Of a DNA stretch of 34,923 nucleotides, positions 5,658 to 33,611 are shown piece after piece; within the stretch, counting starts at the first letter, position 1, and every line of letters starts with the position of its first letter. This DNA comes from Bacteroidota bacterium. GTDB lineage: Bacteria; Bacteroidota; Rhodothermia; Rhodothermales; JBCCMF01. Under the pieces are notes generated by a model that saw only the letters and a program-made list of their open reading frames with translations, had not been told where the DNA came from and made no database searches. Location: assembly GCA_039026435.1 (NCBI GenBank), contig JBCCMF010000005.1, positions 1 to 34,923 of the forward strand, given 5' to 3'. A program made the translations under genes and the position numbers.

Positions 5658-5828
5658 AGCGATGGCAAGAGGTTAGCCAGCAGGGAAATGTGAGACCCAA
5701 CCTAGCCGTACCCGCCGCTCTCCCCAATCCCCGGATGGTGGTAATCTGCCAGTGTTGGCGCCGCCTTGCTTATGGTTCGACGAACGGCTATCATCAGTCG
5801 ATCATCCGCTAGCTTAAGATCAGCGTGC

Positions 5829-7883
5829 ATGCCCGATGTGAAGCCGGTCCTGCTCATCGCCGGGGCCGAGGCCGCCTACCGCCAGTCGGTCTGTGCGATG
5901 GCCCCAGCCACCTACCGTATCGTGGAGGCCAACACCATCGAGGCAGCAGGCGATGCCGTGCTGCAGCACCATCCCGATGTCGCGGTGATCGTCTACGACG
6001 GGACGGACGGCGATGCGCTCCTCCGCCGCCTGCGCCTGATGGCGGCCCGCGAGCCGCTCGGCATCGTCGCTGTCATGCCCAGCGGCACGACGCGCCAGGT
6101 GGTAGACGCCGTGCAGGCGGGCGCCGACGACGTGCTGGTGGCCCCCCAGGCCGAGGCCTTGCGCGACGCGCTATCGGCGGCGCAGATGGGCCGCACCGCC
6201 GAGGCCCACCGCCGCGCCGACCGCCAACTGCGCCGCCGCGAGGCGGAGGCATATATGCAGCGGACCACGCACCGCATCGCGCGGTGGGAGTGGCACCTGG
6301 CCACGGGCGTCCAGACGTGGTCGGCCAGCACCTACGCGCTCCTCGGCTACGACGCGGCCACCACCACGCCCTCGTTCGAGGCGTTCATGGCGCGCATCCA
6401 CCCCGGCGACCGGGCGATGGTACAGCGCGTGACAGACCACATGCTGGAGACCGAGACGCCGCGCCCCATCGAGTACCGCCTCCGCTATCCCGATGGCCGC
6501 GAGGCTCAGGTCTATGCCGACTGCGAGTTGGTGCGCGACGCCAACGGCCAGGCGGAGCGGTTGGTCGGGCTCGTGATCGACATGACGGCGCGCAACCTGT
6601 CGCATCAGCACCTGGAGAAGTACGCCGCGCAGGCGGGCCTGCTGCAAGAGTTCTCGCGCGTGCTGCAAGAGCACGGCCGCGACCTCCAGGGCGTGCTCGA
6701 TGCCATTGTGCGGGAGGTGGCCGGGCGGCTGGGCTACACCTGTGTCATCCTGCTGAAGGAGAAGGACGATCGCCTAAACCCTGTGGCCTATCAGCACCCC
6801 GAGGCCAGTGGGCAAGCGTTCACGCGCAAGCTGTTTGCCGAGGCCGAAGTCTACGCGGATCGCGGCGTGTATGCGCCCGTCTTCGCCGAGGGCACGCCCG
6901 TAGTGATGATGAACGTAGACCCGGTGGCGTACCGCGCGCAGGTCCAGCCCGACGTACGCCCTTACCTCGACAAGTACGGCGTGGACAGCATCATCCTGGC
7001 GCCCATGCGCGTGGGCGGCGAGATCATCGGCAGCTTCGACATCGTGCGGCACCGCCCCGACCGCTGGCTCAGCGAGGACGATGTGCCGTTCGTGCAAAAC
7101 CTCGCCGACCGCGCCTCGATGGCCATCGAAAATGCGCAGCTCTTCAACGAGCTGCACGCCATCCGGGCCGCGCTGGAGCAGAAGGTGCAAGACCTCAACC
7201 AGTTCGCCTACATCGCCTCGCACGACCTGAAGGCGCCGTTGCGCACCATCAACGGCTTCGTCCGGCTCATCGAGAAGCGCCACGGCGAGGTCGCAGCGCA
7301 AGCCAGCGACTACTTCGACTTCATCAAGGGCGCCACCCAAGACATGCAGGCCCTCATCGACGACCTGCTGCTCTTCTCGCGCGCGAGCAATCGCCCCCTG
7401 AACCTCAACACGATTGACCTCAACGAGGTCATAGACCCTGTGCTGCGGATGCTCAACAGCACCATCGAGGCGAAGCAAGCGACCGTCATGGTGGACCCGC
7501 TGCCTGTGGTCTTTGGCGACGCGCGGTACCTGAAGCAGGTCTTCCAAAACCTCATCGGCAACGCCCTCAAGTTCAGCCGCGATCAGGTCGCGCCCTTCAT
7601 CACCATATCGGCGCAAGCGGAGGGCCCGCGCTGGCGCATCCGCATCGCCGACAATGGCATCGGCATCGAGGCGAAGGCGTTTGAGCGCATCTTCCAGATC
7701 TTCCAGCGGCTGCACACCGCCGATGAGTACGAGGGCACGGGCATCGGCTTGGCCCTGGCGGCGAAGATCATGGAGCGCCACGGCGGCCGCATCAGCGTCG
7801 CCTCGGAGCTAGGCGTGGGTAGCACCTTCACGCTCACGTTCTTCAACGCAGGTACCGACGGCGCGCAGGCCGTACTGGGCTAA
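5829..7883 (+). CDS. Hybrid sensor histidine kinase: N-terminal receiver-like domain, PAS, GAF, HisKA and HATPase_c domains.
   Basis: PAS region (WHLATGVQTWSASTYALLGYD...). GAF region. H-box IASHDLKAPLRTINGF. C-terminal HATPase_c N/G boxes (NLIGNALKFS..., GTGIGLALA). The longest ORF starts at ATG 5766. The in-frame ATG at 5829 (MPDVKPVLLIAGAE) sits right before the receiver-like fold, so it is preferred. Confidence 0.85.
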   Translation: MPDVKPVLLIAGAEAAYRQSVCAMAPATYRIVEANTIEAAGDAVLQHHPDVAVIVYDGTDGDALLRRLRLMAAREPLGIVAVMPSGTTRQVVDAVQAGADDVLVAPQAEALRDALSAAQMGRTAEAHRRADRQLRRREAEAYMQRTTHRIARWEWHLATGVQTWSASTYALLGYDAATTTPSFEAFMARIHPGDRAMVQRVTDHMLETETPRPIEYRLRYPDGREAQVYADCELVRDANGQAERLVGLVIDMTARNLSHQHLEKYAAQAGLLQEFSRVLQEHGRDLQGVLDAIVREVAGRLGYTCVILLKEKDDRLNPVAYQHPEASGQAFTRKLFAEAEVYADRGVYAPVFAEGTPVVMMNVDPVAYRAQVQPDVRPYLDKYGVDSIILAPMRVGGEIIGSFDIVRHRPDRWLSEDDVPFVQNLADRASMAIENAQLFNELHAIRAALEQKVQDLNQFAYIASHDLKAPLRTINGFVRLIEKRHGEVAAQASDYFDFIKGATQDMQALIDDLLLFSRASNRPLNLNTIDLNEVIDPVLRMLNSTIEAKQATVMVDPLPVVFGDARYLKQVFQNLIGNALKFSRDQVAPFITISAQAEGPRWRIRIADNGIGIEAKAFERIFQIFQRLHTADEYEGTGIGLALAAKIMERHGGRISVASELGVGSTFTLTFFNAGTDGAQAVLG

Positions 7884-20170: not shown

Positions 20171-22303
20171 CTAAAACGCCAGCACGGAACGCACGCCTTC
20201 CAGGATGTCTTCGTCTTGCGGGAGCACGGCGCGCTCCAGCGGGTCGGCGAAGGGCACGAAGGTGAAGGCCCCCGCCACGCGGCGGACGGGCGCGTCGAGG
20301 TAGGTGAAGGCCGCGTCGGCGATCTGGGCGCAGATCTCAGCGCCGAAGCCGATGAACTCGTGGTCCTCGTAGACCACCAGCGCGCGGTTGGTTTTCTTCA
20401 CCGAGGCTAGGATCGTGTCCATGTCCAGCGGCAGCATCGTGCGGATGTCGATGATCTCGACGGAGACGCCCTCTTTCGCCATCATCCGCGCTACGTTGAC
20501 CGCTTTGTGCACCATCATGCCGTACGTGACGATGGTGAGGTCGGTGCCTTCGCGGACGGTGGCGGCTTTGCCGAAGGGGAGGAGGTAGTCGGCACCCGGC
20601 TCAATAGCCCGCGCAGCGGCGGCGCGGTAGAGCGCCTTGTGCTCCAGGAAGAGCACCGGGTCCTGCATGCGGATGGCCGCTTTGAGCAGTCCCTTGGCAT
20701 CGGCCGCGTTCGACGGCATCGCGATCTTGAAGCCGGGCATGTGGCCGAAGATTGACTCGATGTTTTGCGAGTGGCACAGGCCGCCGTGGATGTAGCCGCC
20801 CGCCGGGACGCGGATCACCATCGGGCAGCCCGCCCGCCCGCCGGAGCGGTAGCGGTAGGTGGCCACCGCGTTGCGCAGGTGCTGCATGGCGGGCCAGATG
20901 TAGTCGGCAAACTGAATCTCGACGACGGGCTTGTAGCCTGCGGCGCTGAGCCCTACGGCCGTGCCGATGACCGACGCTTCGGCCAAGGGGGAATTGAAGC
21001 AGCGGTCTTTGCCGAAGCGATCCGTGAGGCCACGCGTGGCGGTGAACACGCCGCCCTTGCCGCCGGCTACATCCTCGCCGTAGACCAGCACGCGCTCGTT
21101 GCGCGCCATCTCCTCGTGCAGCGCGTGGTTGATGGCATCAACCAGCACCACGGGCTCGGCGCCCTCTGGCTCGGCGTCCTTGCCGTACGTCAGGCCCAAG
21201 TCGCCTTCGAAGTAGACGAGCGCCGTCGCCGACTCCGGCGTGGGGTCAGCTTGGGCGGCGGCCCACACGGCATCGGCGTTGACCTGCGCTTTGATGGTGC
21301 GCCGCATCTCGGCCACGGCGTCTTCGGTCAGCACGCCCGCCTCAATAAGCTGCATCTCCATCCGCGCAATGGGGTCCACCTGGCGGTCGGATTCTAGCTC
21401 CTCCGACGTGCGGTATTTGGCGTGGTTGTCCGAGGACGAGTGGGGAAGCAGCCGCACCACATCGGCCACGAAGCAGACGGGGCCTTGGCCGGAGCGGATA
21501 TGCGCTAGGGCGGCCTGCGCGGCAGCGTATGTCTTGAAGAAGTCCGTGCCATCGACCTGGATGCGCTTAAGGCCTTCATAGCCGCGCGCCAGCTTGTACG
21601 CCGAGCCGCCCGCGGTCTGGTCGGCAACGGGGACCGAGATGGCGTATTTGTTGTCCTGCACCATGAACAGGACGGGCGCCTTGGCCCGCGTGGCCCAGTT
21701 GAGCGCCTCGTGAAAGGCGCCCTGCGAGGTGGCGCCATCGCCGCACGAGGCGTATACGTAGCTGCGGTTGGCGGAGTCGCGCTGCAGGGCCATGCCCACG
21801 CCCAGCGCAGGCAGAAACTGCGCGCCCACCGACGACGACACGGTCAGGATGTTGAGATCGGGCTCGCTGAAGTGCTCAGACATTTGCCGCCCGCCCGAGT
21901 TCGGGTCGTCGGCCTTGGCCATGTGGTGCAGCAGCACATCGCGCGAGGAGGCGCCCAGCGAGAGGTACATGCACAGGTCGCGGTAGTAGAAGCTGAACCA
22001 GTCCGTGCCCGGCTCCGAGAGGAGGCCGACGGCAGCCTGGGCGGCCTCGTGCCCGGCGCACCCGATGTGAAAGAACCCTTTGCCCTGCTTGATGAGGTTC
22101 AGCATCTTCTCGTCGAGCTGCCGCGAGAGCAGCATCGTGTGGAAGGCACGGCGCAGCGTCTCCGGCTTGAAGTCGGCCGGGGTCACCGGAAGAGGAACGA
22201 GGACATCATCATCCACAGGCGGTGCGATTGGGGTCGATGCTACAAAGGTCGGAAGCGCTTCCTGCGCGTCGCCGTCTCCTCCGAGGAGCAAGTCATTGGG
22301 CAT
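20171..22303 (-). CDS. Fused 2-oxoacid dehydrogenase E1 component: TPP-binding alpha domain plus transketolase-like beta domain in one 710-aa chain.
   Basis: N-terminal E1-alpha TPP motifs (GDGATSQGAFHEALNWA...). C-terminal E1-beta / transketolase C-terminal region (GEDVAGGKGGVF..., pyrimidine-binding domain). The fusion architecture is typical of Bacteroidota. Confidence 0.85.
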   Translation of the reverse strand: MPNDLLLGGDGDAQEALPTFVASTPIAPPVDDDVLVPLPVTPADFKPETLRRAFHTMLLSRQLDEKMLNLIKQGKGFFHIGCAGHEAAQAAVGLLSEPGTDWFSFYYRDLCMYLSLGASSRDVLLHHMAKADDPNSGGRQMSEHFSEPDLNILTVSSSVGAQFLPALGVGMALQRDSANRSYVYASCGDGATSQGAFHEALNWATRAKAPVLFMVQDNKYAISVPVADQTAGGSAYKLARGYEGLKRIQVDGTDFFKTYAAAQAALAHIRSGQGPVCFVADVVRLLPHSSSDNHAKYRTSEELESDRQVDPIARMEMQLIEAGVLTEDAVAEMRRTIKAQVNADAVWAAAQADPTPESATALVYFEGDLGLTYGKDAEPEGAEPVVLVDAINHALHEEMARNERVLVYGEDVAGGKGGVFTATRGLTDRFGKDRCFNSPLAEASVIGTAVGLSAAGYKPVVEIQFADYIWPAMQHLRNAVATYRYRSGGRAGCPMVIRVPAGGYIHGGLCHSQNIESIFGHMPGFKIAMPSNAADAKGLLKAAIRMQDPVLFLEHKALYRAAAARAIEPGADYLLPFGKAATVREGTDLTIVTYGMMVHKAVNVARMMAKEGVSVEIIDIRTMLPLDMDTILASVKKTNRALVVYEDHEFIGFGAEICAQIADAAFTYLDAPVRRVAGAFTFVPFADPLERAVLPQDEDILEGVRSVLAF

Positions 22304-22567: not shown

Positions 22568-22864
22568 CTAGGCCTCGTCTTCTTCGTCTGAGGCGGGCAG
22601 GATGGGCGTCACCTCGCGTTCCACCACGATGGTCACATCGGTGAAATGGATGGCCAGCGCGCCGAGCGCCGTAAGCACAGGAGCGAAGAACACCGCTGCT
22701 GCTGCACCGCCAATGCCCACGGTCAGCGGGAATTCCAGAATGACGCGCTCGTCGTTTTTGATGATGACGCGCCGCGTCTTGCCTTCGTCGATCAGCTCTT
22801 TGACGCGATCGACCAATTGGTTGCCTTTCAGTTTGAATTCTTCAACGCGGGGATTGGGCTCCAT
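22568..22864 (-). CDS. DUF4342 domain protein (98 aa).
   Basis: MEPNPRVEEFKLKGNQLVDRVKELIDEGKTRRVIIKNDERVILEFPLTVGIGGAAAAVFFAPVLTALGALA matches the DUF4342 architecture: a soluble N-terminal part plus a Gly/Ala-rich hydrophobic segment. Confidence 0.65.
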   Translation of the reverse strand: MEPNPRVEEFKLKGNQLVDRVKELIDEGKTRRVIIKNDERVILEFPLTVGIGGAAAAVFFAPVLTALGALAIHFTDVTIVVEREVTPILPASDEEDEA

Positions 22865-23010: not shown

Positions 23011-23184
23011 CCCACATGGGGCTGCCGATACAAAGCCCGGGACTGAACGCCAATCCGCTTGTCCAACATACTATGGCGAGCAACGGCACCCACCAACGGA
23101 GGAGGCGTGTGCTGCGGGGGCAGCCACCCTCCACCGACGCTACTTACTCGCTCTACCCAACACAACTCAAAGGAGGCTCCAGAA

Positions 23185-23637
23185 ATGGGTCAACAACAAC
23201 TTCTTCTCCTCGTGCTCGGCATGGTGATCGTCGGTATTGCCGTCGTCGCGGGGATCCAGGCCTTCACCGAAGGCAAGGCCAAAGCAGAAACTGATGCAGC
23301 CGTGGCCGATGCCATGCGCGTCATCTCGGACCTGCAGGCATGGTACCTGAAGCCCGCAGCCTTTGGCGGCGGCAGCGAAACGGCGGCCAACTGGGCTAAT
23401 GTTAAGCTGGGCTCGATCGGCCTCAACCCTGCCGATGATGTAGGCACTGCCAACTCGTACTACGAGACGCTCAACGGGTGCTATGCCCTGACGGCCGCAA
23501 GCGGCAAGGTGACGGTTGAGATCAAGCGCCGGGATGCCAGCGCTGAGGCTGGCAAAGAGTGCGACGGCGCTAAGTATGCCGACGCTGAAATCACCAGCGC
23601 AAGCCCAACCAGCGGCGTGACCTGGACGTACCAGTAA
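23185..23637 (+). CDS. Type IV pilin-like protein (150 aa) with a non-canonical N-terminal signal.
   Basis: A strong Shine-Dalgarno sequence (AAAGGAGG) sits 8 nt upstream of ATG 23185. The N-terminus MGQQQLLLLVLGMVIVGIAVVAGIQAF is a single hydrophobic helix that continues into an amphipathic helix (TEGKAKAETDAAVADAMRVISDLQAWY), like the pilin alpha1 spine. A C-terminal Cys pair spaced 26 aa apart (NGC...KEC) looks like a D-region disulfide. The gene is the first in a pilC-pilB-pilT-pilMN-pilOP cluster. It lacks the G/F-T-L-I-E motif and Glu5. Confidence 0.55.
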   Translation: MGQQQLLLLVLGMVIVGIAVVAGIQAFTEGKAKAETDAAVADAMRVISDLQAWYLKPAAFGGGSETAANWANVKLGSIGLNPADDVGTANSYYETLNGCYALTAASGKVTVEIKRRDASAEAGKECDGAKYADAEITSASPTSGVTWTYQ

Positions 23638-23670
23638 GCCGAGCATCTTTAGCTCATCCAAGCTCGCAAC

Positions 23671-23700
23671 GGGCGGGGCTGGCACCAGCTGGCTCCGCCC
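23671..23700 (+). terminator. GC-rich hairpin immediately downstream of the pilin stop, likely an intrinsic terminator or attenuator.
   Basis: GGGCGGGGCTGGCAC-CAGCTGGCTCCGCCC forms a stem of roughly 13 bp with a few G-U pairs. It begins 34 nt after the TAA and is followed by the T-containing TTGTGCGTTTGGCG. A direct repeat of TGTGCGTTTGGCG occurs twice (23702-23714 and 23718-23730). Confidence 0.45.
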
Positions 23701-23836
23701 TTGTGCGTTTGGCGTCCTGTGCGTTTGGCGCCCTATGTGGCCTCCGGGTAGGCAAAGAGGCCGCCGTTAAATCCACGGCCAACCTGCCGATACTTACCGT
23801 AACCGCATACTCTATCGACCTCCCCGCCAGACTCTC

Positions 23837-25201
23837 ATGGCCGTCAAAGAATTCAAATTTGCAGGCGTTGGCCGCAACGCCCAGCCCGTACAGGGGACGG
23901 TGTTTGCGTCGTCGAAGCGGTCGGCGGAGAAGAAGGTAACGGCACTGGCCGAAAAGCACGGCTTCCGCACGCAGGGGCTGATGGAACGCCGGGCCTTCAT
24001 GTACAAGGTCAAGCACCCCAACGGCACCATCATCAAAGGGGAGCAGAAGGCCTACACCGAAGACGAGATCCGCAAGGCGCTCTCGCGGATGGGGCTAGAG
24101 GTCCTCAAGGTCGAGAAGAAGCTCTTCGACCTGCCGATGAAGCCCCCCAGCCAGGACATCATCATGTTCGTGCGGCTGGCCTCCAACCTGCTGCGCGAAA
24201 AGCTGCCTTTCGATGAGATCCTCACGCTCCTCTCGGGCGATGTCAACTCCAAGCCGCTCAAGCAGACGCTGCGCGACCTCAACGGCGATCTGAAAGGCGG
24301 TATGGATGCGCAGAGCGCGTTCATGAAGCACCAGCACACGCTGGGCAAGTTCACGGCCTACATGCTGGGCATCGCCTCGCAGTCGGGCAACATGTCGGAG
24401 ATCTACGAGGCTACGGCCCGCTTCCTGGAGCGCCAGAACGAGTTCAAGAAGAGCGTGCGCAGCGCCATGATCACGCCCATGATCACGATTGTGTTGCTGC
24501 TGGCGGTGATCCTGTGGTACATCTGGGACATCTTCCCGAAGACAGCTGGCCTGCTAGAGGACGTAGGGATGCCGCTGCCGCCGATGACCGCAAGCACGAT
24601 GGAGTTTTCGTACTGGCTCGATGCGAATTGGTGGTGGCTCTTCACCCTGTTTGCTGTGCTGGTGGGCGGCGTCATCTGGTACGTGCGCACGCCCAAGGGG
24701 CAGTTCCGATGGCATAAGCTCATGATCTCGATGCCCATCATCGGCGCGCTGCTGCACAAGCTGAACATCGAGATTTTCTGCCGCGTGTTCTCCGTGCTCT
24801 ACTCGGGCAGTGGCGAGAACATTCAGGTGATGCGCATTGCCTCGGAGGCGTGCGGCAACGCCTACATGGAGCACCAAATCAAAACCGTCACCATCCCGAT
24901 GATGGTGGGGCAGGGCGCCGGGCTGGTGCAGTCGATGGAGGCCAGCGACGTGTTCACGCCGATGGCTATCGCTCGCTTCCGCAGCGGCGCCGAGACGGGG
25001 AGCGTCCGCAGCAGCGCGCAGCAGATGGCCGACTACTACGAGAGCGAGACGAAGCTCAAGCTCAAGAGCGTGGTCGAGTCCATCCAGACGGGCGTCTCCG
25101 TCTTCATCACCGCCGCCATCATCTTCCTGACGCTGGTCTCAACCGAGGTGGCGATGGTGCAGCCCTCGGCCGAAGACATGATGAACCAGCGCGTCAAGTA
25201 A
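23837..25201 (+). CDS. pilC: Type IV pilus / T2SS platform protein (PilC/GspF family).
   Basis: N-terminal FKFAGVGRNAQPVQGTVFASSKRSAEKKVTALAEKHGF matches the PilC start pattern. Two T2SSF-type cytoplasmic domains are separated by TM segments (ITPMITIVLLLAVILWYIW; WWWLFTLFAVLVGGVIWYV; GVSVFITAAIIFLTLV). Confidence 0.85.
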   Translation: MAVKEFKFAGVGRNAQPVQGTVFASSKRSAEKKVTALAEKHGFRTQGLMERRAFMYKVKHPNGTIIKGEQKAYTEDEIRKALSRMGLEVLKVEKKLFDLPMKPPSQDIIMFVRLASNLLREKLPFDEILTLLSGDVNSKPLKQTLRDLNGDLKGGMDAQSAFMKHQHTLGKFTAYMLGIASQSGNMSEIYEATARFLERQNEFKKSVRSAMITPMITIVLLLAVILWYIWDIFPKTAGLLEDVGMPLPPMTASTMEFSYWLDANWWWLFTLFAVLVGGVIWYVRTPKGQFRWHKLMISMPIIGALLHKLNIEIFCRVFSVLYSGSGENIQVMRIASEACGNAYMEHQIKTVTIPMMVGQGAGLVQSMEASDVFTPMAIARFRSGAETGSVRSSAQQMADYYESETKLKLKSVVESIQTGVSVFITAAIIFLTLVSTEVAMVQPSAEDMMNQRVK

Positions 25202-25244
25202 ACGCCGGGCTCCGGCGCATTCACCCTTCCGCTCATCACCTGTT

Positions 25245-27740
25245 GTGCTCGTCATGGTGCTTTCCTCTGCGTATCCCGGCGCCGCAGGCGGCCTCGATCT
25301 CAGCATGGAGGGCGCGCTCCCGGCACCGTCGCCGATGGAGCAGGCGATGCAGGACGAGGTCTTGCAGGCGCTCATCGGCGAGGAGCAGATCGGCTTGCCG
25401 CACGCCGTCAGGGCCGTCAAGGCGCGCAACGCACACCCTGCCCGCGCTGAGCCGTGGCGCTTCCTCGTGGGGCAAGAGGGCGTGGACCTGGACGCCGTAG
25501 CGCAGACCGTGGCCACCGTAGCGGGCTACCCCGTGGTGGATCTGTCGAAGACGAACCCCGTCATGGTCCAAGCCATCTTCGCCCTCTTCCCGGACGAACT
25601 GGCGGACCGGCTGCGCGGCCTGGGGCTTGTGCCGCTGGGCTTAGACGAGGACGAGCACGGCCAGCGGTTGCGGCTTGTGTGCCCTGACCCGACCAACGAC
25701 GCCGTGCAAGCGCTGCTCGCCTCCATCGCGGTGCCGCTGAGCGTGGGCTTTGCGCCCGCCTCGGCGGTAGGCGTGCTCTTGGAGGCGGTGGAGACGCTCC
25801 GCCAAGCCCGTAGCGAGGCTCCGGCGCCCGTGGCGCCACCCCGCGAGAGCAGCGACGAAGCCACCGACCTGCCAGCTGCCGAAGCACCAGCCGCCGACCC
25901 GCCTCCCGTGCCCCAGGGCGATACGCCCGTCGTGTTCGTCCAGCCCGTGCGCGACCGCGTGGTGAAGGCGATGCTGCGCCACGAAACGGTGGCCCCAGCC
26001 CTGGTGAAGCAGGCGCAAGCGTGGCAGGCCGAGGAGGGCGTCAAAGAGCCGCTGTGGCGCACGCTGACGCGCCTGCCGGGGCCGCATCAGGAAGCGGTGT
26101 TTGCCCAGGCGGCCCAGACCTACGCCTTCCGCGCCGCCGACATCAACGGCGACAAGCCCGACCTGGAGTTTGTGCGCGGCGTCATGCAGGCCTTCGAGGA
26201 GGACTATCGCGAGGCGCTGCTGCAGCAAAACGTGGTCGTGTTTGACCTGCGCGTGGAGCCGGAGACGGGGGCTCACCGCACGGTGTTCATCACGCACGAT
26301 CCCACACGGCCCGAGATCCTACCCCTGCTGCGGCGCCTCAAGCTGGAACGCTACGAGCTGCAGTACGCCGCGCCCAGCGCTGTGCGCCAGGTCATCGACC
26401 GGGCGTTCCCGGCCGAAAACGAGTTCCTGGCCCGCATCGAAGACGACGCGCCCGCCCTGGACATGGGCACCGTGGGCCTCGACGACGAAGAGAGCAGCCT
26501 GATCGACCGCGAGGCGCTGGAGGCCGAGCTGAACCGCTCCAGCCTGATCAACCTGTTCGAAGGCGCGCTCGTGGAGGCCGTCCGCCGTGGCGCCTCCGAC
26601 ATCCACATCTACCCGAATGCCAGGAAAGAAATCGAAATCCACTTCCGCATCGACGGGCGGCTAAAGCTGTGGATGACCGAGCGCCGCATCCATCCCGAGG
26701 CGATGCTCGCCGTCATCAAGGACAACGCGATGAACGTGGACCGCTTCGAGCGCGAGATGGCGCAGGACGGCTTCATCCAACGCGATGTGGACGGCGCGCT
26801 GATCCGCTACCGCGTCTCGGTGTTGCCCATCGCCAACGCCCAGCAGGAGCTGCGGTCGGAGAGCGTCGTCATCCGCGTCATCGACGACCGCAAGGTGGTC
26901 ACCGACCTGAGCAAGCTGGGCCTGCTGCCTTCGGCGCTGGAGCGCTTCGACCGCGCCATCCGGCAGCCGCACGGCATGGTCATCCTCACCGGGCCTACGG
27001 GCTCGGGCAAGAGCACTACACTTGTGGCCGCGCTGCATCAGGTGGTCGATCCGGAGGTGAACGTGCTGACGGTAGAAGACCCCGTCGAGTACATCATCCC
27101 CGGCGTGCGACAGATCAAGCTGGGCACCAAGCTCAACCTGGAGGGGGCGCTGCGGGCCATCCTGCGCCACGACCCCGACATCGTCATGGTTGGCGAGATG
27201 CGCGACCGGGCGACGGCCGAGATGGGCATCAAGCTGGCCAACACGGGCCACCTCACCTTCTCCACGCTGCACACCAACGACGCGCCCAGCGCCGTGACGC
27301 GCCTCTACAAGATGGGCATCGAGCCGTTCTTGATCGCCTACGCCATCAACCTCGTGGTGGCGCAGCGCCTCATCCGCACGCTCTGCCCGGATTGTAAGCA
27401 GCACGACCCCAACCCCGACCCGTTGCTGCTGGAGCGCATGGGCTTCACGAAGGATGAGATCGCCACGACCACGTTCTACCGCCCGAGCACCGACAAGGCG
27501 TGCCCCACGTGCCGAGGCATCGGCTACAAGGGCCGCCGGGCCATCTGCGAGGCGCTCTACTTCTCGCGTGCCATCCGCCACACAATTGCGCAGGCACAGG
27601 GCAACCTCGACGAAGGCGTCGTGCGCGACCTCGCCGTCAAGGAAGGCATGCTGACGCTGCTCGACTCGGCGCGTGAATACGTGAAGATGGGGCTGACGGA
27701 TGTGGATGAGATGGTGCGCGTGACGGCGACGGAGGACTAG
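25245..27740 (+). CDS. pilB: PilB/GspE-family pilus assembly ATPase, enlarged to 831 aa, with two tandem N-terminal T2SS-E N-domains (MshEN-like) joined by a Pro/Ala-rich linker.
   Basis: Walker A GPTGSGKST. Asp box and His box present. Tetracysteine motif CPDCKQ...CPTCRGIGYKGR. Two GSPII_E_N-like regions at about aa 40-190 and 250-385. GTG start at 25245. Alternative in-frame ATG starts at 25254 and 25335 (MEQAMQDEVLQALIGE...). Confidence 0.85.
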   Translation: MLVMVLSSAYPGAAGGLDLSMEGALPAPSPMEQAMQDEVLQALIGEEQIGLPHAVRAVKARNAHPARAEPWRFLVGQEGVDLDAVAQTVATVAGYPVVDLSKTNPVMVQAIFALFPDELADRLRGLGLVPLGLDEDEHGQRLRLVCPDPTNDAVQALLASIAVPLSVGFAPASAVGVLLEAVETLRQARSEAPAPVAPPRESSDEATDLPAAEAPAADPPPVPQGDTPVVFVQPVRDRVVKAMLRHETVAPALVKQAQAWQAEEGVKEPLWRTLTRLPGPHQEAVFAQAAQTYAFRAADINGDKPDLEFVRGVMQAFEEDYREALLQQNVVVFDLRVEPETGAHRTVFITHDPTRPEILPLLRRLKLERYELQYAAPSAVRQVIDRAFPAENEFLARIEDDAPALDMGTVGLDDEESSLIDREALEAELNRSSLINLFEGALVEAVRRGASDIHIYPNARKEIEIHFRIDGRLKLWMTERRIHPEAMLAVIKDNAMNVDRFEREMAQDGFIQRDVDGALIRYRVSVLPIANAQQELRSESVVIRVIDDRKVVTDLSKLGLLPSALERFDRAIRQPHGMVILTGPTGSGKSTTLVAALHQVVDPEVNVLTVEDPVEYIIPGVRQIKLGTKLNLEGALRAILRHDPDIVMVGEMRDRATAEMGIKLANTGHLTFSTLHTNDAPSAVTRLYKMGIEPFLIAYAINLVVAQRLIRTLCPDCKQHDPNPDPLLLERMGFTKDEIATTTFYRPSTDKACPTCRGIGYKGRRAICEALYFSRAIRHTIAQAQGNLDEGVVRDLAVKEGMLTLLDSAREYVKMGLTDVDEMVRVTATED

Positions 27741-27840
27741 CGCGCGTCTGAAGCGGCCCGTTGGGCTTAAAGCCTGGCCGCATTGGCCGATACGGAGGGC
27801 AAAGCCAGCCAGAACACCGTATCGCCAACACCAGACCGAC

Positions 27841-29292
27841 GTGAGCTACTCGTTCGAGAACTTGTTTTCGCCTTCGGGGCCGTCACAGCCCGAGCCGCAG
27901 CGCAACACACAGGATGTGCCGTCGCGGCCCGTGTGGGAGGGCGCCAAGGCGGCACCCGCCACGAAGACGGCTGCCGTCACCCCGCCTCCGGCATGGGGGC
28001 AGCCCAACACGGCCCCTAAAAAGCCCAAGGCCAAAGCGGCACGCGCGCACCCAACGCTCGGAAGCGGCACCGTACCGCCTGTGCCCAAGGTGGCCAAGGC
28101 GATCCTCGGCCGCCTGCCCGATGCCGCCGCAGGCCTGACGCGGCTGCGCTTCATCGCTGAGCAGGTGGAACGCCTGCGCGACGAAGACCGCCACCAGATC
28201 CAGGTCGTGGTGGGCGCCTGGGCTCGCCGGATGGTAGAGCTGGGCGCCTCAGACATCGCCGCAGGAGGCTCCGGTGCCAGCGGCATGGTGTGGTACCGTG
28301 TGGATGGCAAAAACACGCCGCGTGAAGAGATGGGGCGCTACTCCGACTACGAGGCCGATCTGCTGCTGCTGTCCCAGCTGGGGCCGGAGCAGGTAGAGTG
28401 CCTCTTCGACGAATACTCCATCGACTTTTCCTACCGCGTCGAGCTCGTGGGCAAGGACGGCAGGCCGCGTCGCTTTCGTGCCACCATCTACTTCGACTAC
28501 GACCACCTGGCCCTCAACATGCGCGCCATCACCGACGAGGTGCGGCCGCTTGACTCGTTGGGCTTCCATCCGCTCGTCAAACGCCGGCTCATGTTCAGCC
28601 ACGAACGCGACGGCCTGACGCTGGTCACAGGCGTGACGGGCTCCGGCAAGAGCTCAACGCTCGACGCCATCATCGACGCCAACAACAAAGACTTCTACGG
28701 CAACATTGTCATTATTGGCAAGCCCGTGGAATTCGTGCACAACACCAAGCGCAGCATCGTGCGCCACCGCGAGGTGGGCAAGGATGTGCGCAGCTTTAAG
28801 GAGGGTATCGTGCAGGCGCTCCGCCAAGACCCCGACATCGTGGTCATCGGTGAGATGCGCGACCCCGAGACGATCTCATCCGCCCTAGAGATCACCGACT
28901 CGGGCCACAAGGTGTTCTCCACGCTTCACACCTCCTCGGCCGTGGAGAGCATCGACCGCATCATGGGTGAGTACCCGCCCGAGGAGCAAGACCGCGTGCG
29001 CAACCGCCTGGCGGACACCCTGCGCTGTGTGATCTCGCAGAAGCTGCCGCCCAAAATTGATGGCGGGCGCATCCTGTGCAAGGAAATCCTCTGGATGACG
29101 TCCTCGGCACGCGCCGCCATCAAAAACGGCAACTCGGGCGAGATCTACCAGATGATGTGGGAGGGCTCTAACGAGGGCATGGTCACGCTTGAGCAAGACC
29201 TGGCCCGGCTCGTCCGCGAGCGCCTCATCACACCCGAAGTGGCGTACGATTACGCCAACAACAAACGCCGCCTGCGCCGCATCCTCGGATAG
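27841..29292 (+). CDS. pilT: PilT-family pilus retraction ATPase with an N-terminal low-complexity extension of about 110 aa.
   Basis: Walker A VTGVTGSGKSST. Motifs ALRQDPDIVVIGEMRD and GHKVFSTLHTSSA. C-terminal AAIKNGNSGEIYQMM (PilT AIRNLIRE-like). The ORF opens at GTG 27841. An in-frame GTG at 28165 (VERLRDEDRHQIQVVVGAW...) would give a canonical protein of about 376 aa. The extension has GC3 of roughly 81%, which suggests it is translated. Confidence 0.85.
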   Translation: MSYSFENLFSPSGPSQPEPQRNTQDVPSRPVWEGAKAAPATKTAAVTPPPAWGQPNTAPKKPKAKAARAHPTLGSGTVPPVPKVAKAILGRLPDAAAGLTRLRFIAEQVERLRDEDRHQIQVVVGAWARRMVELGASDIAAGGSGASGMVWYRVDGKNTPREEMGRYSDYEADLLLLSQLGPEQVECLFDEYSIDFSYRVELVGKDGRPRRFRATIYFDYDHLALNMRAITDEVRPLDSLGFHPLVKRRLMFSHERDGLTLVTGVTGSGKSSTLDAIIDANNKDFYGNIVIIGKPVEFVHNTKRSIVRHREVGKDVRSFKEGIVQALRQDPDIVVIGEMRDPETISSALEITDSGHKVFSTLHTSSAVESIDRIMGEYPPEEQDRVRNRLADTLRCVISQKLPPKIDGGRILCKEILWMTSSARAAIKNGNSGEIYQMMWEGSNEGMVTLEQDLARLVRERLITPEVAYDYANNKRRLRRILG

Positions 29293-29324
29293 GCTCGGGC
29301 ATCCCCACATAGATCCCCACGATC

Positions 29325-31139
29325 ATGAAACGCAAGCGCATCAACGAAAACGTGCTCGGAGTGATGGCCGACGACCGGACGGTCCACGCCATCCTCGTGC
29401 AGCAAGGGCCAAACGGCCCCGAGATCAAGCGCCGCTTCTCGCGGGCGCGCGCCAGCCAGTATGCCGACGCCGTCGTGCCGGACCTGGGCTTTGATCCGGC
29501 CATGGAACAGGCCTCGTTCGGAGGCGACGACTTCAACATCCAGTTTGGCGATGCAGGCGCACAGACCAACTTCCTCAAGGGCGAGTTTGGCGACTTGGCC
29601 GCTAAGGCCGACACGTCGAAGAAAGCCCCCGAGGCCGTCATCGAGCCGTTTGCGCTGGAGTTGGGTGATATTCTGGCAGAGTGCGCCGACACGGGCTTCG
29701 CCAAGCCTCGCGTGGCCGTGTGCCTGCACGATGGAGACACGGCGTACCACGAGCTGATCTACAGTGAGCGCGAGGATGCCAAGCCCAAGAAGGGCAAGAA
29801 GAAAAGCGCGAGTACCTCTGCCGATGGCCGCCCGAATACGCTGCAGCTGATCGCGCTGATGCAGGCGCTGCACAACGTGAAGGTGGGCGAGGCCGAAGCC
29901 GCGTTCTTGCCTATGGGTGTGACGCCGAGCGGCGCCTACCAGTACCTGGGGCTGGCTCCCGCCACCACCGATCCGGCCACGGCCACGCTCAAGCAGATGT
30001 ACAAGCAGAAGGGCAAGTACGTGCCCGATGCCCGCTTGGTGGATGCCGAGGTGCCGCTGTACCTGGGGCTGGCTCGCATGACGTTTGGCCTCAACGCCGA
30101 GCCCGCGCAGCAGAAGCACACGCTCATCGTCCGCACCAGTGCCAACAACACGCTTGTGCTCTTCATGCAGGGCGACACGCTGATCGAGTCCGAGAGCCTG
30201 CAGTCGCTTACCTCGTACGACGCGCCCGAGACGATCTGTAGCCGCGTGCTGCTGCAGCAGGACGAGCTGGGCCTGACGGACATTGACCACGTGCTGTTGC
30301 TCAACCGCGAGCGCGAGGACGACATGGCGGAGAGCTTCTCGATGTTCTTCCCCGCAGCCCGCGTGGTGCTCATGCGCCAGGCGCTGCCGCTGAAGAACGC
30401 CGCCGCCGCCGACTCGCCCGGGCTGGTGCAGGCCGCCCTCGCCGCGCTCCGCCTTGTTGGGGGGGAAGCCGTGATGGAGAGCTTCGACGGGCACAACATG
30501 CTGCCCAAGAGCCTCCGCAAAATCCGCATTGAGCTGCCCTTCTCGTGGCACACGCTGGTGCTCTCGCTGATGATCTTCTGCACCGTGTTCTTCTTCACGT
30601 GGCGCTACGTCACGATGGATCAACGGATCACGAACAAGAAAGCCCTCATCACGCTGCAAGACCCCACGACGAACCTGGATGTAGATGAGCAGGTGCTGCA
30701 AGCGCGCATCGACAGCCTGCAGAGCACGTACGTGCGCTACGTGCAGGCGCTCAACGTCATCGACTCGCTGCTGGTGGGCAGCGACCGCTGGAGCCGCACG
30801 CTGGAGACCATCACGCGCGAGACCGCTGCCACGCCCGGCATCTGGGTCGATTCCATGTCGCCGCTAGGCAACAACGTGGTCGTCGTAGGCAATGCGCGAG
30901 GGCGCGACAACGTGGTCGCCTTCGCCGAGCGCACCGAGGCGGTCATCGAGACGCTGACCTTTGAAGAGATCCGCGACTGGCCCGTGTACAATTTCCGCAT
31001 GCGCGTCCCCTCGCCCGAGGTGCTGCCCGAGGCGGCCGTCTTCCTCCGCGAGCAGGTGGAGCAAGCCGAGGTGGCGGCCACGAGTGCATCCGCATCTGCT
31101 GAACCCGTTGCTGCGCTGAACGCGGGCGCGACGCCCTAA
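29325..31139 (+). CDS. Predicted PilM-PilN fusion protein (604 aa): a divergent actin-like PilM-type cytoplasmic domain, a single TM helix, and a PilN-like coiled-coil/periplasmic domain.
   Basis: N-terminus NVLGVMADDRTVHAILVQQG has PilM-like initial beta strands. A second actin-like block is HTLIVRTSANNTLVLFMQGDTLIE. The TM segment WHTLVLSLMIFCTVFFFTWRYV is followed by a coiled-coil (DEQVLQARIDSLQSTYVRYVQALN) and a PilN-like beta domain. The gene lies between pilT and a pilO-like gene. Confidence 0.55.
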   Translation: MKRKRINENVLGVMADDRTVHAILVQQGPNGPEIKRRFSRARASQYADAVVPDLGFDPAMEQASFGGDDFNIQFGDAGAQTNFLKGEFGDLAAKADTSKKAPEAVIEPFALELGDILAECADTGFAKPRVAVCLHDGDTAYHELIYSEREDAKPKKGKKKSASTSADGRPNTLQLIALMQALHNVKVGEAEAAFLPMGVTPSGAYQYLGLAPATTDPATATLKQMYKQKGKYVPDARLVDAEVPLYLGLARMTFGLNAEPAQQKHTLIVRTSANNTLVLFMQGDTLIESESLQSLTSYDAPETICSRVLLQQDELGLTDIDHVLLLNREREDDMAESFSMFFPAARVVLMRQALPLKNAAAADSPGLVQAALAALRLVGGEAVMESFDGHNMLPKSLRKIRIELPFSWHTLVLSLMIFCTVFFFTWRYVTMDQRITNKKALITLQDPTTNLDVDEQVLQARIDSLQSTYVRYVQALNVIDSLLVGSDRWSRTLETITRETAATPGIWVDSMSPLGNNVVVVGNARGRDNVVAFAERTEAVIETLTFEEIRDWPVYNFRMRVPSPEVLPEAAVFLREQVEQAEVAATSASASAEPVAALNAGATP

Positions 31140-31181
31140 CCGACCCCACGCGACTATCCCACACCGTTATCTCCCGAACCC

Positions 31182-32165
31182 ATGTCTGGCATCCTTCAAA
31201 ATATTCTGGTCTTGACCTTCTGCTGGCTCGCCGCCACTGGCGCTGGCGTGTACCTGACCTTCTTCAACCAGCCCAAGGAAATCGAGCGGCTGGAGAAGAT
31301 TGAGCAGGTCAACGAGATGAAGCAGGCCGAGTTTAGAAACTTGGTCTCTGAAGAGGCCGTCTCGTCGCAGCGTGCCAACGAGGTGACGCGCCGCTGGAAC
31401 GCCCGCTACAAGCTGGTGCCGCCCACACTCAGCAGCGCCGCCGTCGTCGGTATCCTCAACGCATTGACCCGGGAAGGCTTCGACGAGTTCAACATCGTTT
31501 ACGATGGCCAAAAGTCCGACCCGACCATCAGCAGCCATAGGTTCAGTGTCAGCGGGCAGGGCTACTACACGCACCTGTACCAAGTGATTTGGAACCTGGA
31601 GAACGGCCGCGAACTGTACCGCGTGCAGCGCCTCGACCTGACCAACCTCAACCTGGTGAAGGTGAACCGCCAGACGCAACGGGAAGAGCTGAAGGTGATG
31701 GTGGAGTTCACGTTCGAGGTGGTTGCGTACTTTGCTGGTACGGAAGGCCTCAGCGCTGACGATGCTGGGCCGGGCGTGCTCGAAAACGACATCCAGGTTG
31801 CGGCCTTACCGGAGTTGCCCGAAGGCGTGCTCCCCGCCAAGCAGCCCAACGTAAATCCCTTCTACCCCGGTATTCTCGAAACGCTGCCGCCCAACAGCAA
31901 GGGCCTGATCGATGTGGAAGACGCCTCGCTTATCTCCGTCACAGGCGAGCGTGCCTACTTTGACGTGGGCGGCGAGTTTAAGAGCGTAGCCCTGGGCGGC
32001 AACGTATACCTGGGCACCGTTACCGCCGTCGATCCGCACAACGGCCGCGTCAGGGTGCGCCTCAACAAAGGCGGCATCATCGACCACGTCGAAGTCCGAA
32101 TCGAGGAAGGCGAAGCCCAGCGCCCCAGGGGCGGCAGCTACACCACGCAAGGCGTCGGCTGGTAG
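31182..32165 (+). CDS. Predicted PilO-PilP fusion (327 aa): TM helix, coiled-coil and PilO-like domain, then a PilP-like beta domain after a flexible linker.
   Basis: TM segment ILQNILVLTFCWLAATGAGVYLTFF. Coiled-coil EIERLEKIEQVNEMKQAEFRNL. PilO-like core (SGQGYYTHLYQVIWNLENG...LDLTNLN). Downstream, NPFYPG...LIDVEDASLISVTGERAYFDVGGEFKSVALGGNVYLGTVTAVDPHNGRVRVRL resembles the PilP/GspC homology region (DPF-P motif plus beta sandwich). Confidence 0.55.
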   Translation: MSGILQNILVLTFCWLAATGAGVYLTFFNQPKEIERLEKIEQVNEMKQAEFRNLVSEEAVSSQRANEVTRRWNARYKLVPPTLSSAAVVGILNALTREGFDEFNIVYDGQKSDPTISSHRFSVSGQGYYTHLYQVIWNLENGRELYRVQRLDLTNLNLVKVNRQTQREELKVMVEFTFEVVAYFAGTEGLSADDAGPGVLENDIQVAALPELPEGVLPAKQPNVNPFYPGILETLPPNSKGLIDVEDASLISVTGERAYFDVGGEFKSVALGGNVYLGTVTAVDPHNGRVRVRLNKGGIIDHVEVRIEEGEAQRPRGGSYTTQGVGW

Positions 32166-32195: not shown

Positions 32196-33611
32196 TCAGC
32201 GCAGCAACGCCGCCGACAGCAGGAAGAAGATCGCCAGCCCGAGCAGGTCATTGCTCGTCGTGATGAACGGTCCCGTGGCCAGCGCCGGGTCGATGTTGAC
32301 GCGGTCGAGCAGGAGCGGGATGGTGGCGCCCAGCGTGGTCGCCAGGATGATGACCAAGGTCAGCGCCAGGCCCACGACGGCGGCGAGCCGTGCTACGCTG
32401 GTGGTCTCCGCCAGGAACTGTGCGCCGAGCATGCCGAGGCCTACCACGATGAGCGCCAGCACGAGCGAGAGCAGCAGCCCCGTGCAGATCGACACGAGCA
32501 GTTCTTTGCCGAGCCGCTTGAAGACGTCGCTGGTCCACAAGTCGCCCGAGGCGATGCCTTGCACGGCGATCGATGAGCTTTGGATGCCCGCGTTGCCCGC
32601 CATCGCCATGACGACGGGGATGAAGAACGCGAGCGCGATGTTGCTCGACAGCTGGTCCTCGAAACCCATGATGACGCCGCCGCAGAGGAGCGCCCCCGCC
32701 AGGCCGATGTAGAGCCACACGATGCGGCTGCGGACGATCTCCCAGATGGAGTCGTTCGGCTGCTCGTCCGCCGTGCCGCTCATGCGCTGCATGTCCTCCT
32801 CGGCCTCCTCGCGGATCACGTCTACCACGTCATCGATGGTGATGCGGCCGAGGATCTGGCCGCCCTGATCAACGACCGGGATCGCCAGCAGGTCGTACCG
32901 CTCGAACAAGCGCGCCACCTCTTCCTGGTCTTCCCCCGCGCCCACCGACACGAATTCGGCGTCCATGATGTCTTGCAGCAGCACGCCCGACGGCGTCAGC
33001 AGCAGCCGCTTGAGCGTCACGATGCCGATGAGCGCCGCGTGGTCATCCACGACGTAAATCACGTAGACCGGATCGACTTCCTCCGCCTTGCGACGCACTT
33101 CCTCGGTGGCCTGATCGACGGTGTGGTTCCACGGCACGGCCACGTACTCGCGCGCCATGAGCCCGCCCGCCGTGTCCTCGGCGTATCCCAGCAGATTGCC
33201 CACGTCCTCGGCGTCCTCCAGCGTAGGCAGCACGCGCTGCGCCACCTCGGCAGGCAGGTCGGCCAGCACGTCGGCTACGTCGTCCGAGTCCATCTCGTCG
33301 AACAGCTCGGTGAGGCGGGCTGTGGTGGCTTCTTCGAGCAGCTCGGCGCGGAAGTCGTCGTCTAGCTCGGGCAGCACCTCGCTGGCTTGCTCGGTGGGCA
33401 GCCAGTGGAACAGCGTATCGGCGGTCTCGGCAGGAAGGTGCGAGAGGACCTGCTCCAGGTCGGCCGGGTAGAGGTCGGCCACGAGGTTGAGCACCATGCC
33501 CTCCTGCCGCGCCTCCACGAGCGCGCCGATGTTCTCCACGAGCTCGACGTCTACATCGGGCATAGCCACGGCGCGTGCGTCGTCGTCGGGCAGCAGATCG
33601 GTCATGGGCAC
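32196..33611 (-). CDS. mgtE: Magnesium transporter MgtE.
   Basis: N-terminal MgtE_N domain (acidic). Tandem CBS domains. C-terminal 5-TM MgtE core (GNAGIQSSSIAVQGIASGD...). GTG start at 33611. An ATG lies two codons downstream. Confidence 0.9.
   Translation of the reverse strand: MPMTDLLPDDDARAVAMPDVDVELVENIGALVEARQEGMVLNLVADLYPADLEQVLSHLPAETADTLFHWLPTEQASEVLPELDDDFRAELLEEATTARLTELFDEMDSDDVADVLADLPAEVAQRVLPTLEDAEDVGNLLGYAEDTAGGLMAREYVAVPWNHTVDQATEEVRRKAEEVDPVYVIYVVDDHAALIGIVTLKRLLLTPSGVLLQDIMDAEFVSVGAGEDQEEVARLFERYDLLAIPVVDQGGQILGRITIDDVVDVIREEAEEDMQRMSGTADEQPNDSIWEIVRSRIVWLYIGLAGALLCGGVIMGFEDQLSSNIALAFFIPVVMAMAGNAGIQSSSIAVQGIASGDLWTSDVFKRLGKELLVSICTGLLLSLVLALIVVGLGMLGAQFLAETTSVARLAAVVGLALTLVIILATTLGATIPLLLDRVNIDPALATGPFITTSNDLLGLAIFFLLSAALLR

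Follow-up and report, generated by a model that had tools for sequence, protein, structure and literature searches.

A 34.9-kb stretch of DNA from a metagenome-assembled genome of the order Rhodothermales (Bacteroidota), called the window here, carries six consecutive plus-strand genes within positions 23059–32165 that resemble components of a type IV pilus (Table 1). The first encodes a pilin-like protein of 150 residues. It is followed by genes for the platform protein PilC, the ATPases PilB and PilT, a protein of 604 residues that joins PilM to PilN (NCBI locus tag AAF730_00845), and a protein of 327 residues with a predicted PilO-type domain, termed PilO-X. After correction of the first start codon, the cluster spans 23185–32165. 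From the pilin gene onward, the gaps between genes are about 200, 44, 100, 33, and 43 bp, and the G+C content is about 65% throughout the window, without a shift in composition at the cluster. A DUF4342 gene and a gene for a fused E1 dehydrogenase lie upstream in divergent orientation; mgtE (32196–33611) is convergent directly beyond the cluster, and rsmA is next. Reading of the open reading frames (ORFs) and annotation of the window agrees with an earlier interpretation of the same DNA (the original prediction), which had described six co-directional plus-strand genes abutting mgtE on the opposite strand. In our reading, the region encodes the core of a retractile type IVa-like pilus on the cytoplasmic and inner-membrane side, together with its major subunit, in a form proper to Rhodothermales; we put the probability of this reading at roughly 0.75.

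Table 1. Features of the pilus-like cluster, with positions in the window
Feature	Coordinates	Strand	Basis or remark
Shine-Dalgarno-like AAAGGAGG	23169..23176	+	8 nt before pilin ATG; read directly
Major pilin-like gene, 150 aa	23185..23637	+	N-terminus MGQQQLLLLVLGMVIVGIAVVAGIQAF
GC-rich stem-loop, candidate terminator/attenuator	23658..23712	+	13-bp core stem 23671-23700
PilC, inner-membrane platform, 454 aa	23837..25201	+	Pfam T2SSF
PilB extension ATPase, 831 aa as longest ORF	25245..27740	+	T2SSE
PilT-family retraction ATPase, 483 aa	27841..29292	+	pilT_fam, PDB relatives
PilM-PilN fusion, 604 aa	29325..31139	+	Profile match to PilN, fold match to PilM
PilO-type domain + C-terminal beta domain, 327 aa	31182..32165	+	Topology/fold, weak

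The platform protein and the extension ATPase were assigned by profile searches and by comparison with solved structures. PilC matches Pfam T2SSF (PF00482) over two stretches with an E value of 1.8e-30, which bears out its assignment, and it reaches 150–161 bits on the NCBIfam PilC and GspF models, below their equivalog cutoffs. PilB scores 326 bits on T2SSE. On the NCBIfam models TIGR02538 and TIGR02533, it scores 373 and 382 bits, each under the equivalog cutoff, such that the PilB and GspE models are near equal. Its best solved relatives are the PilB proteins of Geobacter and Myxococcus (E values of 2e-83 to 6e-80), with GspE slightly lower. The N-terminal region of PilB, about 430 residues long, contains weak MshEN matches at residues 94–173 and 344–391; these reach 15.7–16.6 bits against a 23.1-bit cutoff when the fragment is scanned, and the first reaches 24.3 bits in a scan of the whole protein. 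The match to Thermus PilF is confined to the ATPase core, and the two weak MshEN-like matches compare with three GSPII/MshEN domains in PilF. A PilB with an additional N-terminal region was correctly anticipated, but the length of 831 residues is that of the longest ORF and is probably too great. The match to the orthologue from one sister genome (locus L003) starts about 24 residues into the longest ORF, and translation probably starts at M21 or M31 (25305 or 25335), 20–30 codons inside it.

The retraction ATPase was likewise expected to have an N-terminal extension, and it does. PilT scores 301 bits on pilT_fam (cutoff 319), and its best solved matches are the PilT proteins of Aquifex and Thermus (E value of 3e-62), with PilU lower. 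Within the extension of about 125 residues, residues ~1–78 are variable and rich in Pro, Ala, and Lys, and residues ~79–126 are conserved order-wide, in at least 90% of 69 orthologues. Because all 483 codons align with those of two sister genomes (loci L003 and L083) and because residues ~79–126 are conserved, the extension is real.

The 604-residue protein was identified by profile and fold comparison rather than by Pfam or NCBIfam. A profile of 34 family sequences matches Myxococcus PilN (E value of 1.3e-7) over residues 396–546 and aligns the NLLP motif. When the AlphaFold2 model of the protein (predicted local distance difference test score, pLDDT, of 76.6) is used in a Foldseek search, the top matches are the PilM structures 5eox (E value of 5e-13) and 5eou and Thermus 2ych, with E values ranging to 9e-11, and PilM folds rank ahead of FtsA and of the cytoplasmic domain of PulL (5tkw, E value of 2.4e-6). 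An actin-like PilM domain (residues ~1–388) leads into the PilN motif N391-M-L-P394 and a transmembrane helix (residues ~408–430), and on the C-terminal side are a coiled coil and then a ferredoxin-like periplasmic domain (residues ~506–562). Given the profile match to PilN and the fold matches with PilM first, the protein is therefore an end-to-end fusion of PilM and PilN. It is a genuine fusion, as had been proposed, with a GspL-like architecture but nearer to PilM, and the two parts are fused in all 80 related loci described below.

For PilO-X, the predicted secondary structure begins with a transmembrane helix and a coiled coil, continues with two alpha-beta-beta units, and ends, after a disordered linker, in a small beta domain. 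The transmembrane helix and coiled coil occupy residues 3–75, the ferredoxin-like PilO-type domain residues ~86–185, the linker residues 186–236, and the beta domain residues ~237–312. An NPFxPxI...PPN motif is found in the linker, and the region of the beta domain is rich in residues that are invariant in an alignment of 65 PilO-X sequences (NPFxPxI...PPN, VYLG, LNKGGII). A Pfam scan of these 65 family members returned scattered coiled-coil noise, one weak PilO match, and two weak T2SSM_b matches, and PDB profile searches with PilO-X gave only a weak match to the transmembrane and coiled-coil region of PilN. Judging from the structural model, we assign a PilO-type domain to the protein. The beta domain at its C-terminus may, by position and topology, be an equivalent of PilP.

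The pilin-like gene is first in the module, as predicted, but it does not start at TTG 23059, which would give a protein of 192 residues. This start is ruled out by the Shine-Dalgarno-like sequence ahead of ATG 23185 and by upstream in-frame stops in orthologues. Most orthologous loci have an in-frame stop no more than 10 codons upstream of the same ATG, and GGAGG-like motifs are found at the same distance from it. The family of this protein contains 1,440 members at the 90% identity level and falls into 1,429 clusters at 50% identity, and they are named hypothetical at NCBI and pseudopilin PulG in some JGI records. In the family alignment, residues 1 to ~63 (MGQQQLLLLVLGIVIVGIAVVAGIQAFSEGKxKAxxDAAVSDAMRIISDxQAWxLKPxAFGGG) are almost invariant, and the C-terminal part is variable with two invariant cysteines (C99 and C126). 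An invariant N-terminus, a variable C-terminus, and a Cys pair make up the classic conservation pattern of type IV pilins. Of the 150 best cluster representatives, 146 align with the profile from the first residue on both sides, and Gly(−1), Glu(+5), and a charged leader are all missing from the N-terminus.

Alignment of the family with Escherichia coli GspG by hhalign gives a probability of 78% (E value of 1.8e-5) over residues 8–60. Membrane helix and amphipathic helix are both covered by the alignment without interruption, and the resemblance is confined to the alpha-1 helix. Its register places Gln5 at the Gly(−1) position and Val10 at the Glu(+5) position, and the unprocessed N-terminus is just 3–5 residues longer than that of a mature pseudopilin. 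The best match in a PDB profile search with the family was a Geobacter pilin, which was not significant (E value of 1.1). On sequence comparison, homology links the 150-residue subunit to pilins and pseudopilins through their alpha-1 helix. Cleavage by signal peptidase I in the N-terminal region was considered and rejected on account of the family-wide invariant hydrophobic core and the continuous homology to GspG.

A hairpin follows the pilin stop codon, with an RNA folding energy of −46.2 kcal/mol (z = −3.8 versus shuffles). It was not picked up at 23671–23700 by a simple terminator scan because its T-run is weak. Hairpins are common after major pilin genes, and this one is a candidate terminator or attenuator, as judged from its predicted fold, between the pilin gene and the machinery genes. 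A scan of the window for sigma-70 promoters gave no match, which is expected because Bacteroidota promoters are different.

Members of the pilin family vary in number and length among relatives. A second class of paralogue that starts with MGQQQLLLLV (~136 aa) is found in relatives, and in many of them two tandem MGQQQ-type genes (~143–165 aa and ~136 aa) precede pilC (L014:1561–2678, L027:922–1914, L029:3–927). This window has the longer class only. Rare family members (P0401 and P0364) have 9–12 extra residues ahead of GQQQL (MPNPSSSGF-GQQQ... and MSKYYEDKSHGL-GQQQ...). These extensions could be start-codon miscalls, or they could belong to leader-bearing relatives that form a bridge to canonical prepilins.

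The cluster is not particular to this genome. The PilM–PilN family is found in at least 152 species-representative genomes, and all named records are from Rhodothermales or unclassified Bacteroidota. Related loci were mapped by tblastn, giving 80 loci from different species. Their usual order is pilin gene or genes, pilC, pilB, genes for three small N-terminally anchored proteins, pilT, pilMN, the PilO-X gene, a gene for a secretin of ~455 residues, and often a gene for a 459-residue protein. As the same order recurs in loci from different species, the cluster is not a chance arrangement. Wherever a locus extends far enough, an MGQQQ pilin gene directly precedes pilC; pilT is inside the cluster in all 80 loci. 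Among the 60 loci with at least 1.5 kb of DNA beyond the PilO-X gene, 57 have a secretin gene within 1 kb of it (PF00263, E value of 1.3e-28). The original prediction had presented the fusions, the ATPase extensions, and the missing secretin as peculiarities of this module. The fusions and extensions are instead traits of the whole order Rhodothermales, and the lack of a secretin is not a trait of the system. The protein of ~459 residues, which follows the secretin in L001:14222–15601 and about 30 other loci and is absent from this window, has a sub-threshold Peptidase_M28 match (E value of 7e-4); a link between it and subunit maturation is pure speculation.

The most novel feature of the system is its pilin family, which fails the test for a class III signal and occurs in clusters without a prepilin peptidase. 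When all ORFs of the window and of 82 related loci (1.24 Mb) were searched by phmmer with E. coli GspO, no A24 peptidase match was found at E ≤ 1, whereas the same run recovers secretins with E. coli GspD. A regular expression for canonical class III signals, which as a control recovers E. coli GspG, GspH, GspI, and GspJ, finds none that is credible in the 1.24 Mb of Rhodothermales pilus loci. The claim that the pilin of the window has no recognizable class III signal, which the original prediction mentioned only briefly, is thus upheld, with the start of MGQQQLLLLV set by the upstream stops in relatives. The three small cluster proteins of relatives are leaderless as well (MPQTLLALLA..., MQLIFDNL..., MGKxxLLL...). 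In these proteins and in the major subunit, the hydrophobic helix starts no more than about five residues after the initiator Met, and there is no Gly−1/Glu+5. Left unprocessed, their N-termini would differ in length from that of a mature pilin by only 3–5 residues. That the major subunit starts at MGQQQLLLLV and has neither Gly(−1) nor Glu(+5) nor a charged leader suggests that subunit maturation is non-canonical and possibly independent of prepilin peptidase. That the Rhodothermales type IV filament is built from "pre-matured" subunits needing no prepilin peptidase is a tentative proposal, to which we give somewhat less than even odds.

How these proteins might work together can be proposed by analogy with type IVa pili (T4aP). 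PilC would serve as the platform, on which hexameric PilB would polymerize the membrane-embedded pilin-like subunits and PilT would depolymerize them. PilM–PilN, a single polypeptide that includes the PilN NLLP peptide that normally docks into PilM, would form an alignment ring with the PilO-type protein, and the beta domain fused to the latter would be the likely connector to the secretin, in the role of PilP. The three small proteins encoded between pilB and pilT in most Rhodothermales are candidates for minor pilins. The core of what had been predicted, a divergent filament system, type IVa-like in kind, that contains PilB, PilT, PilC, PilM–PilN, and a PilO-containing fusion, is supported here.

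Several observations speak against this interpretation. The pilin has no Pfam or NCBIfam match, including none to a Pfam pilin or N_methyl model, and it has no positive charge N-terminal to its membrane helix, which creates a topology problem for N-in/C-out insertion. Neither the 604-residue protein nor PilO-X of the window has a match in Pfam or NCBIfam. The original prediction had named searches with hidden Markov models as the check on its PilM, PilN, PilO, and PilP assignments, and with no match for either fusion protein, the assignments fail that check. The evidence for PilO comes from a model of low confidence (pLDDT of 53.7), which is poor because just 15 homologues were available for modeling. 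For the beta domain, no sequence or fold match to PilP or GspC was obtained by any method tried; of the proposed PilO–PilP fusion, the PilO-type part stands and the PilP label is unproven. No secretin is encoded in the 34.9-kb window, and no secretin, minor-pilin candidate, or peptidase is on this contig, as had been noted, for the module, of the secretin and the peptidase, so a complete machine is an assumption for this organism. In the literature searched, no pilus, motility, or competence phenotype of the Rhodothermales system was found.

The same proteins could instead constitute a machine resembling a type II secretion system (T2SS), in which a short GspG-like periplasmic pseudopilus pushes folded proteins through the secretin, with PilM–PilN in the place of GspL, the PilO-type protein in that of GspM, and the beta domain in that of GspC. 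PilM–PilN has the architecture of GspL, and the cytoplasmic domain of PulL is among its fold matches. However, PilM is far above PulL in those searches, and hhalign comparison of the family profiles with E. coli GspL, GspM, and GspC was negative. The near-equal scores of PilB on the GspE and PilB models, and of PilC relative to GspF, are compatible with secretion, but the best solved relatives of PilB are PilB proteins. The one significant profile link of the pilin is to GspG, in keeping with the pseudopilin PulG label in some JGI records; on the other hand, this resemblance is limited to the alpha-1 helix, there are no class III signals, and a hypervariable C-terminus with 1,429 clusters at 50% identity fits a surface pilin better than a periplasmic pseudopilin. 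A secretion system derived from T4aP does exist in Bacteroidetes (PMC6668835, PMC5553014), but PilT, which both the T2SS and the Cytophaga system are without, is present in all 80 loci. We therefore regard a secretion machine as unlikely.

Another possibility concerns the 150-residue protein itself, which might not be a filament subunit but an abundant membrane-anchored or secreted neighbor, with the true class III pilins encoded elsewhere and processed by PilD. This would be in line with the lack of a Pfam pilin or N_methyl match, the lack of Gly(−1) and Glu(+5), and an hhalign probability of just 78%. It would leave unexplained why the gene is immediately before pilC in every locus reaching that far and why the protein shows pilin-like conservation and a Cys pair; furthermore, no credible canonical class III signal is found in the 1.24 Mb of loci, and the three small cluster proteins are equally leaderless. 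We find this explanation quite improbable.

If the cluster encodes a type IVa-like pilus, as we favor, the reduced gene set of the window needs to be accounted for. The three of the 60 loci without an adjacent secretin are this window and its two nearest relatives, the sister genomes (PilM–PilN 88% and 82% identical). These three loci share identical flanks (E1 dehydrogenase, DUF4342, cluster, mgtE, rsmA), and all three are also without the three small genes between pilB and pilT. In neither sister genome is a secretin or a small pilin-like gene found 10 kb or less from the cluster. The six ORFs are intact in all three genomes, and the ratio of nonsynonymous to synonymous substitution rates (dN/dS) within this clade is 0.05–0.125 for all six genes and 0.09–0.16 for the beta domain alone. 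Strong purifying selection on the six genes indicates that the machinery is maintained and that the partner of the beta domain presumably still exists. Dispersed clusters are frequent in the order: in 12 loci, pilT-pilMN-pilO-secretin is found without pilB within 6 kb, and in three others outside this clade pilB is directly beside pilT. In the clade of the window, the secretin and small-gene modules have probably moved out of the cluster and are predicted to be elsewhere in the genome; the compactness of the module, in this case, would be due to dispersal of the cluster.

That the cluster is a remnant, its secretin and minor subunits lost and the rest decaying or re-used without an outer-membrane channel, for example as a periplasmic filament, is the least probable of the explanations considered, for although secretin and small pilin-like genes are missing from the 34.9-kb contig and from within 10 kb in the two sisters and an IS-family transposase is ~4.8 kb beyond the cluster in L083, the six ORFs are intact at low dN/dS, the beta domain, presumed to contact the secretin, is as constrained as the rest, and split clusters are so common in the order that dispersal is the simpler reading. 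The L083 transposase gene (L083:17615–18490, DDE_Tnp_1) is separated from the end of the cluster by mgtE, rsmA, an EPSP synthase gene, and two FMN-dependent dehydrogenase gene fragments, and its presence is compatible with local rearrangement in this clade.

Some neighboring genes of the window are also of note. The DUF4342 gene (98 aa; 22568–22864, minus strand) is divergent from the pilin gene, and the same neighborhood is found in L003, L083, L014:470–742, and L027:16–246. These include distant loci, with PilM–PilN only ~40% identical, and the recurrence of DUF4342 next to the pilin gene in distant loci suggests a functional or regulatory link with that gene. The protein of 710 residues encoded at 20171–22303 (minus strand) unites both E1 subunits (alpha and beta) of a 2-oxoacid dehydrogenase in one chain; its L083 orthologue has the domains E1_dh, Transket_pyr, and Transketolase_C. 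At 3–5672 (minus strand) is the gene for a secreted protein of at least 1,886 residues, truncated by the start of the window, in which an N-terminal signal peptide and beta-propeller-like repeats (Rax2/attractin-type) are followed by many Ig/Fn3-like repeats (Ig_Rha78A_N, fn3, Pur_ac_phosph_N). This giant protein may be a cell-surface adhesin-like protein. Its gene adjoins one for a sensor histidine kinase (5766–7883, plus strand) with PAS, GAF, HisKA, and HATPase domains, the N-terminal ~150 residues of which have no Pfam match and appear receiver-like by eye.

Four parts are usually taken as universal in type IV filaments and serve to define them: the assembly ATPase, the platform protein, the prepilin peptidase, and a pilin that bears a class III signal. 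In the present case, a whole order carries an otherwise orthodox, PilT-containing T4aP-like machine, and surveys that require a recognizable pilin would miss its unannotated subunit family. No description of a Rhodothermales pilus was found in the literature searched. Should the subunits indeed not be processed by PilD, the accepted minimal parts list of type IV filaments would change, and neither the prepilin peptidase nor the pairing of Glu5 with N-methyl-Phe1 would be universal in the superfamily. The invariant Gly-Gln-Gln-Gln tip would then solve membrane extraction and core packing in another way, and the system would be a natural test of the purpose of the leader, Gly−1, and Glu5. The PilM–PilN and PilO-plus-connector fusions set both stoichiometry and topology in the alignment complex, which could be of use in structural work. 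Rhodothermus marinus is both cultivable and genetically tractable.

Overall, the T4aP of Myxococcus xanthus, Pseudomonas aeruginosa, and Thermus thermophilus are the closest known systems. PilB, PilT, and PilC are clear homologues, a PilM fold, a PilN sequence, and a PilO-type fold are present, and the order in relatives is M-N-O-(P?)-secretin. The long N-terminal region of PilB, with its MshEN-like domains, is reminiscent of Thermus PilF, and the hairpin after the major-subunit gene is also T4aP-like. Unlike in T4aP, PilM and PilN are one polypeptide, PilO is extended by a beta domain, and PilP is missing as a separate protein. Further differences are the conserved N-terminal extension of PilT, the short secretin of relatives (~455 aa), a pilin and candidate minor pilins without a class III signal, and the absence of pilD from every cluster. 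In T2SS, GspL is the structural equivalent of the PilM–PilN fusion, with an actin-like domain in the cytoplasm, a transmembrane helix, and a ferredoxin-like domain in the periplasm; the counterpart of PilO is GspM, and that of PilP is the HR domain of GspC. The cytoplasmic domain found here, however, is nearer to PilM than to PulL (E values of 5e-13 versus 2e-6), the PilN docking motif is kept, and PilT is present.

Within the same phylum-level group, the "T2SS" of Cytophaga and Flavobacterium is also derived from T4aP and also has divergent alignment proteins, detectable by remote homology only, and a divergent major subunit (PMC5553014, PMC6668835). The cluster of Cytophaga hutchinsonii (CHU_3191–3201) has a gene for an A24 prepilin peptidase and pseudopilins with recognizable N-terminal homology, and it has no PilT (PMC5553014). 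By this published description, the Rhodothermales cluster is set apart, being its opposite in peptidase, pseudopilin homology, and PilT. None of the names Rhodothermus, Salinibacter, and Melioribacter occurs in the supplements of Denise et al. For Melioribacter roseus (Ignavibacteria), the genome paper reports pilT, pilQ, pilB, and pilC but no pilA or pilD (PMC3534657). The pattern of missing genes, as known from the published gene list alone, is the same as in Rhodothermales, and this gene set is a lead to possible similar systems in other parts of the FCB group.

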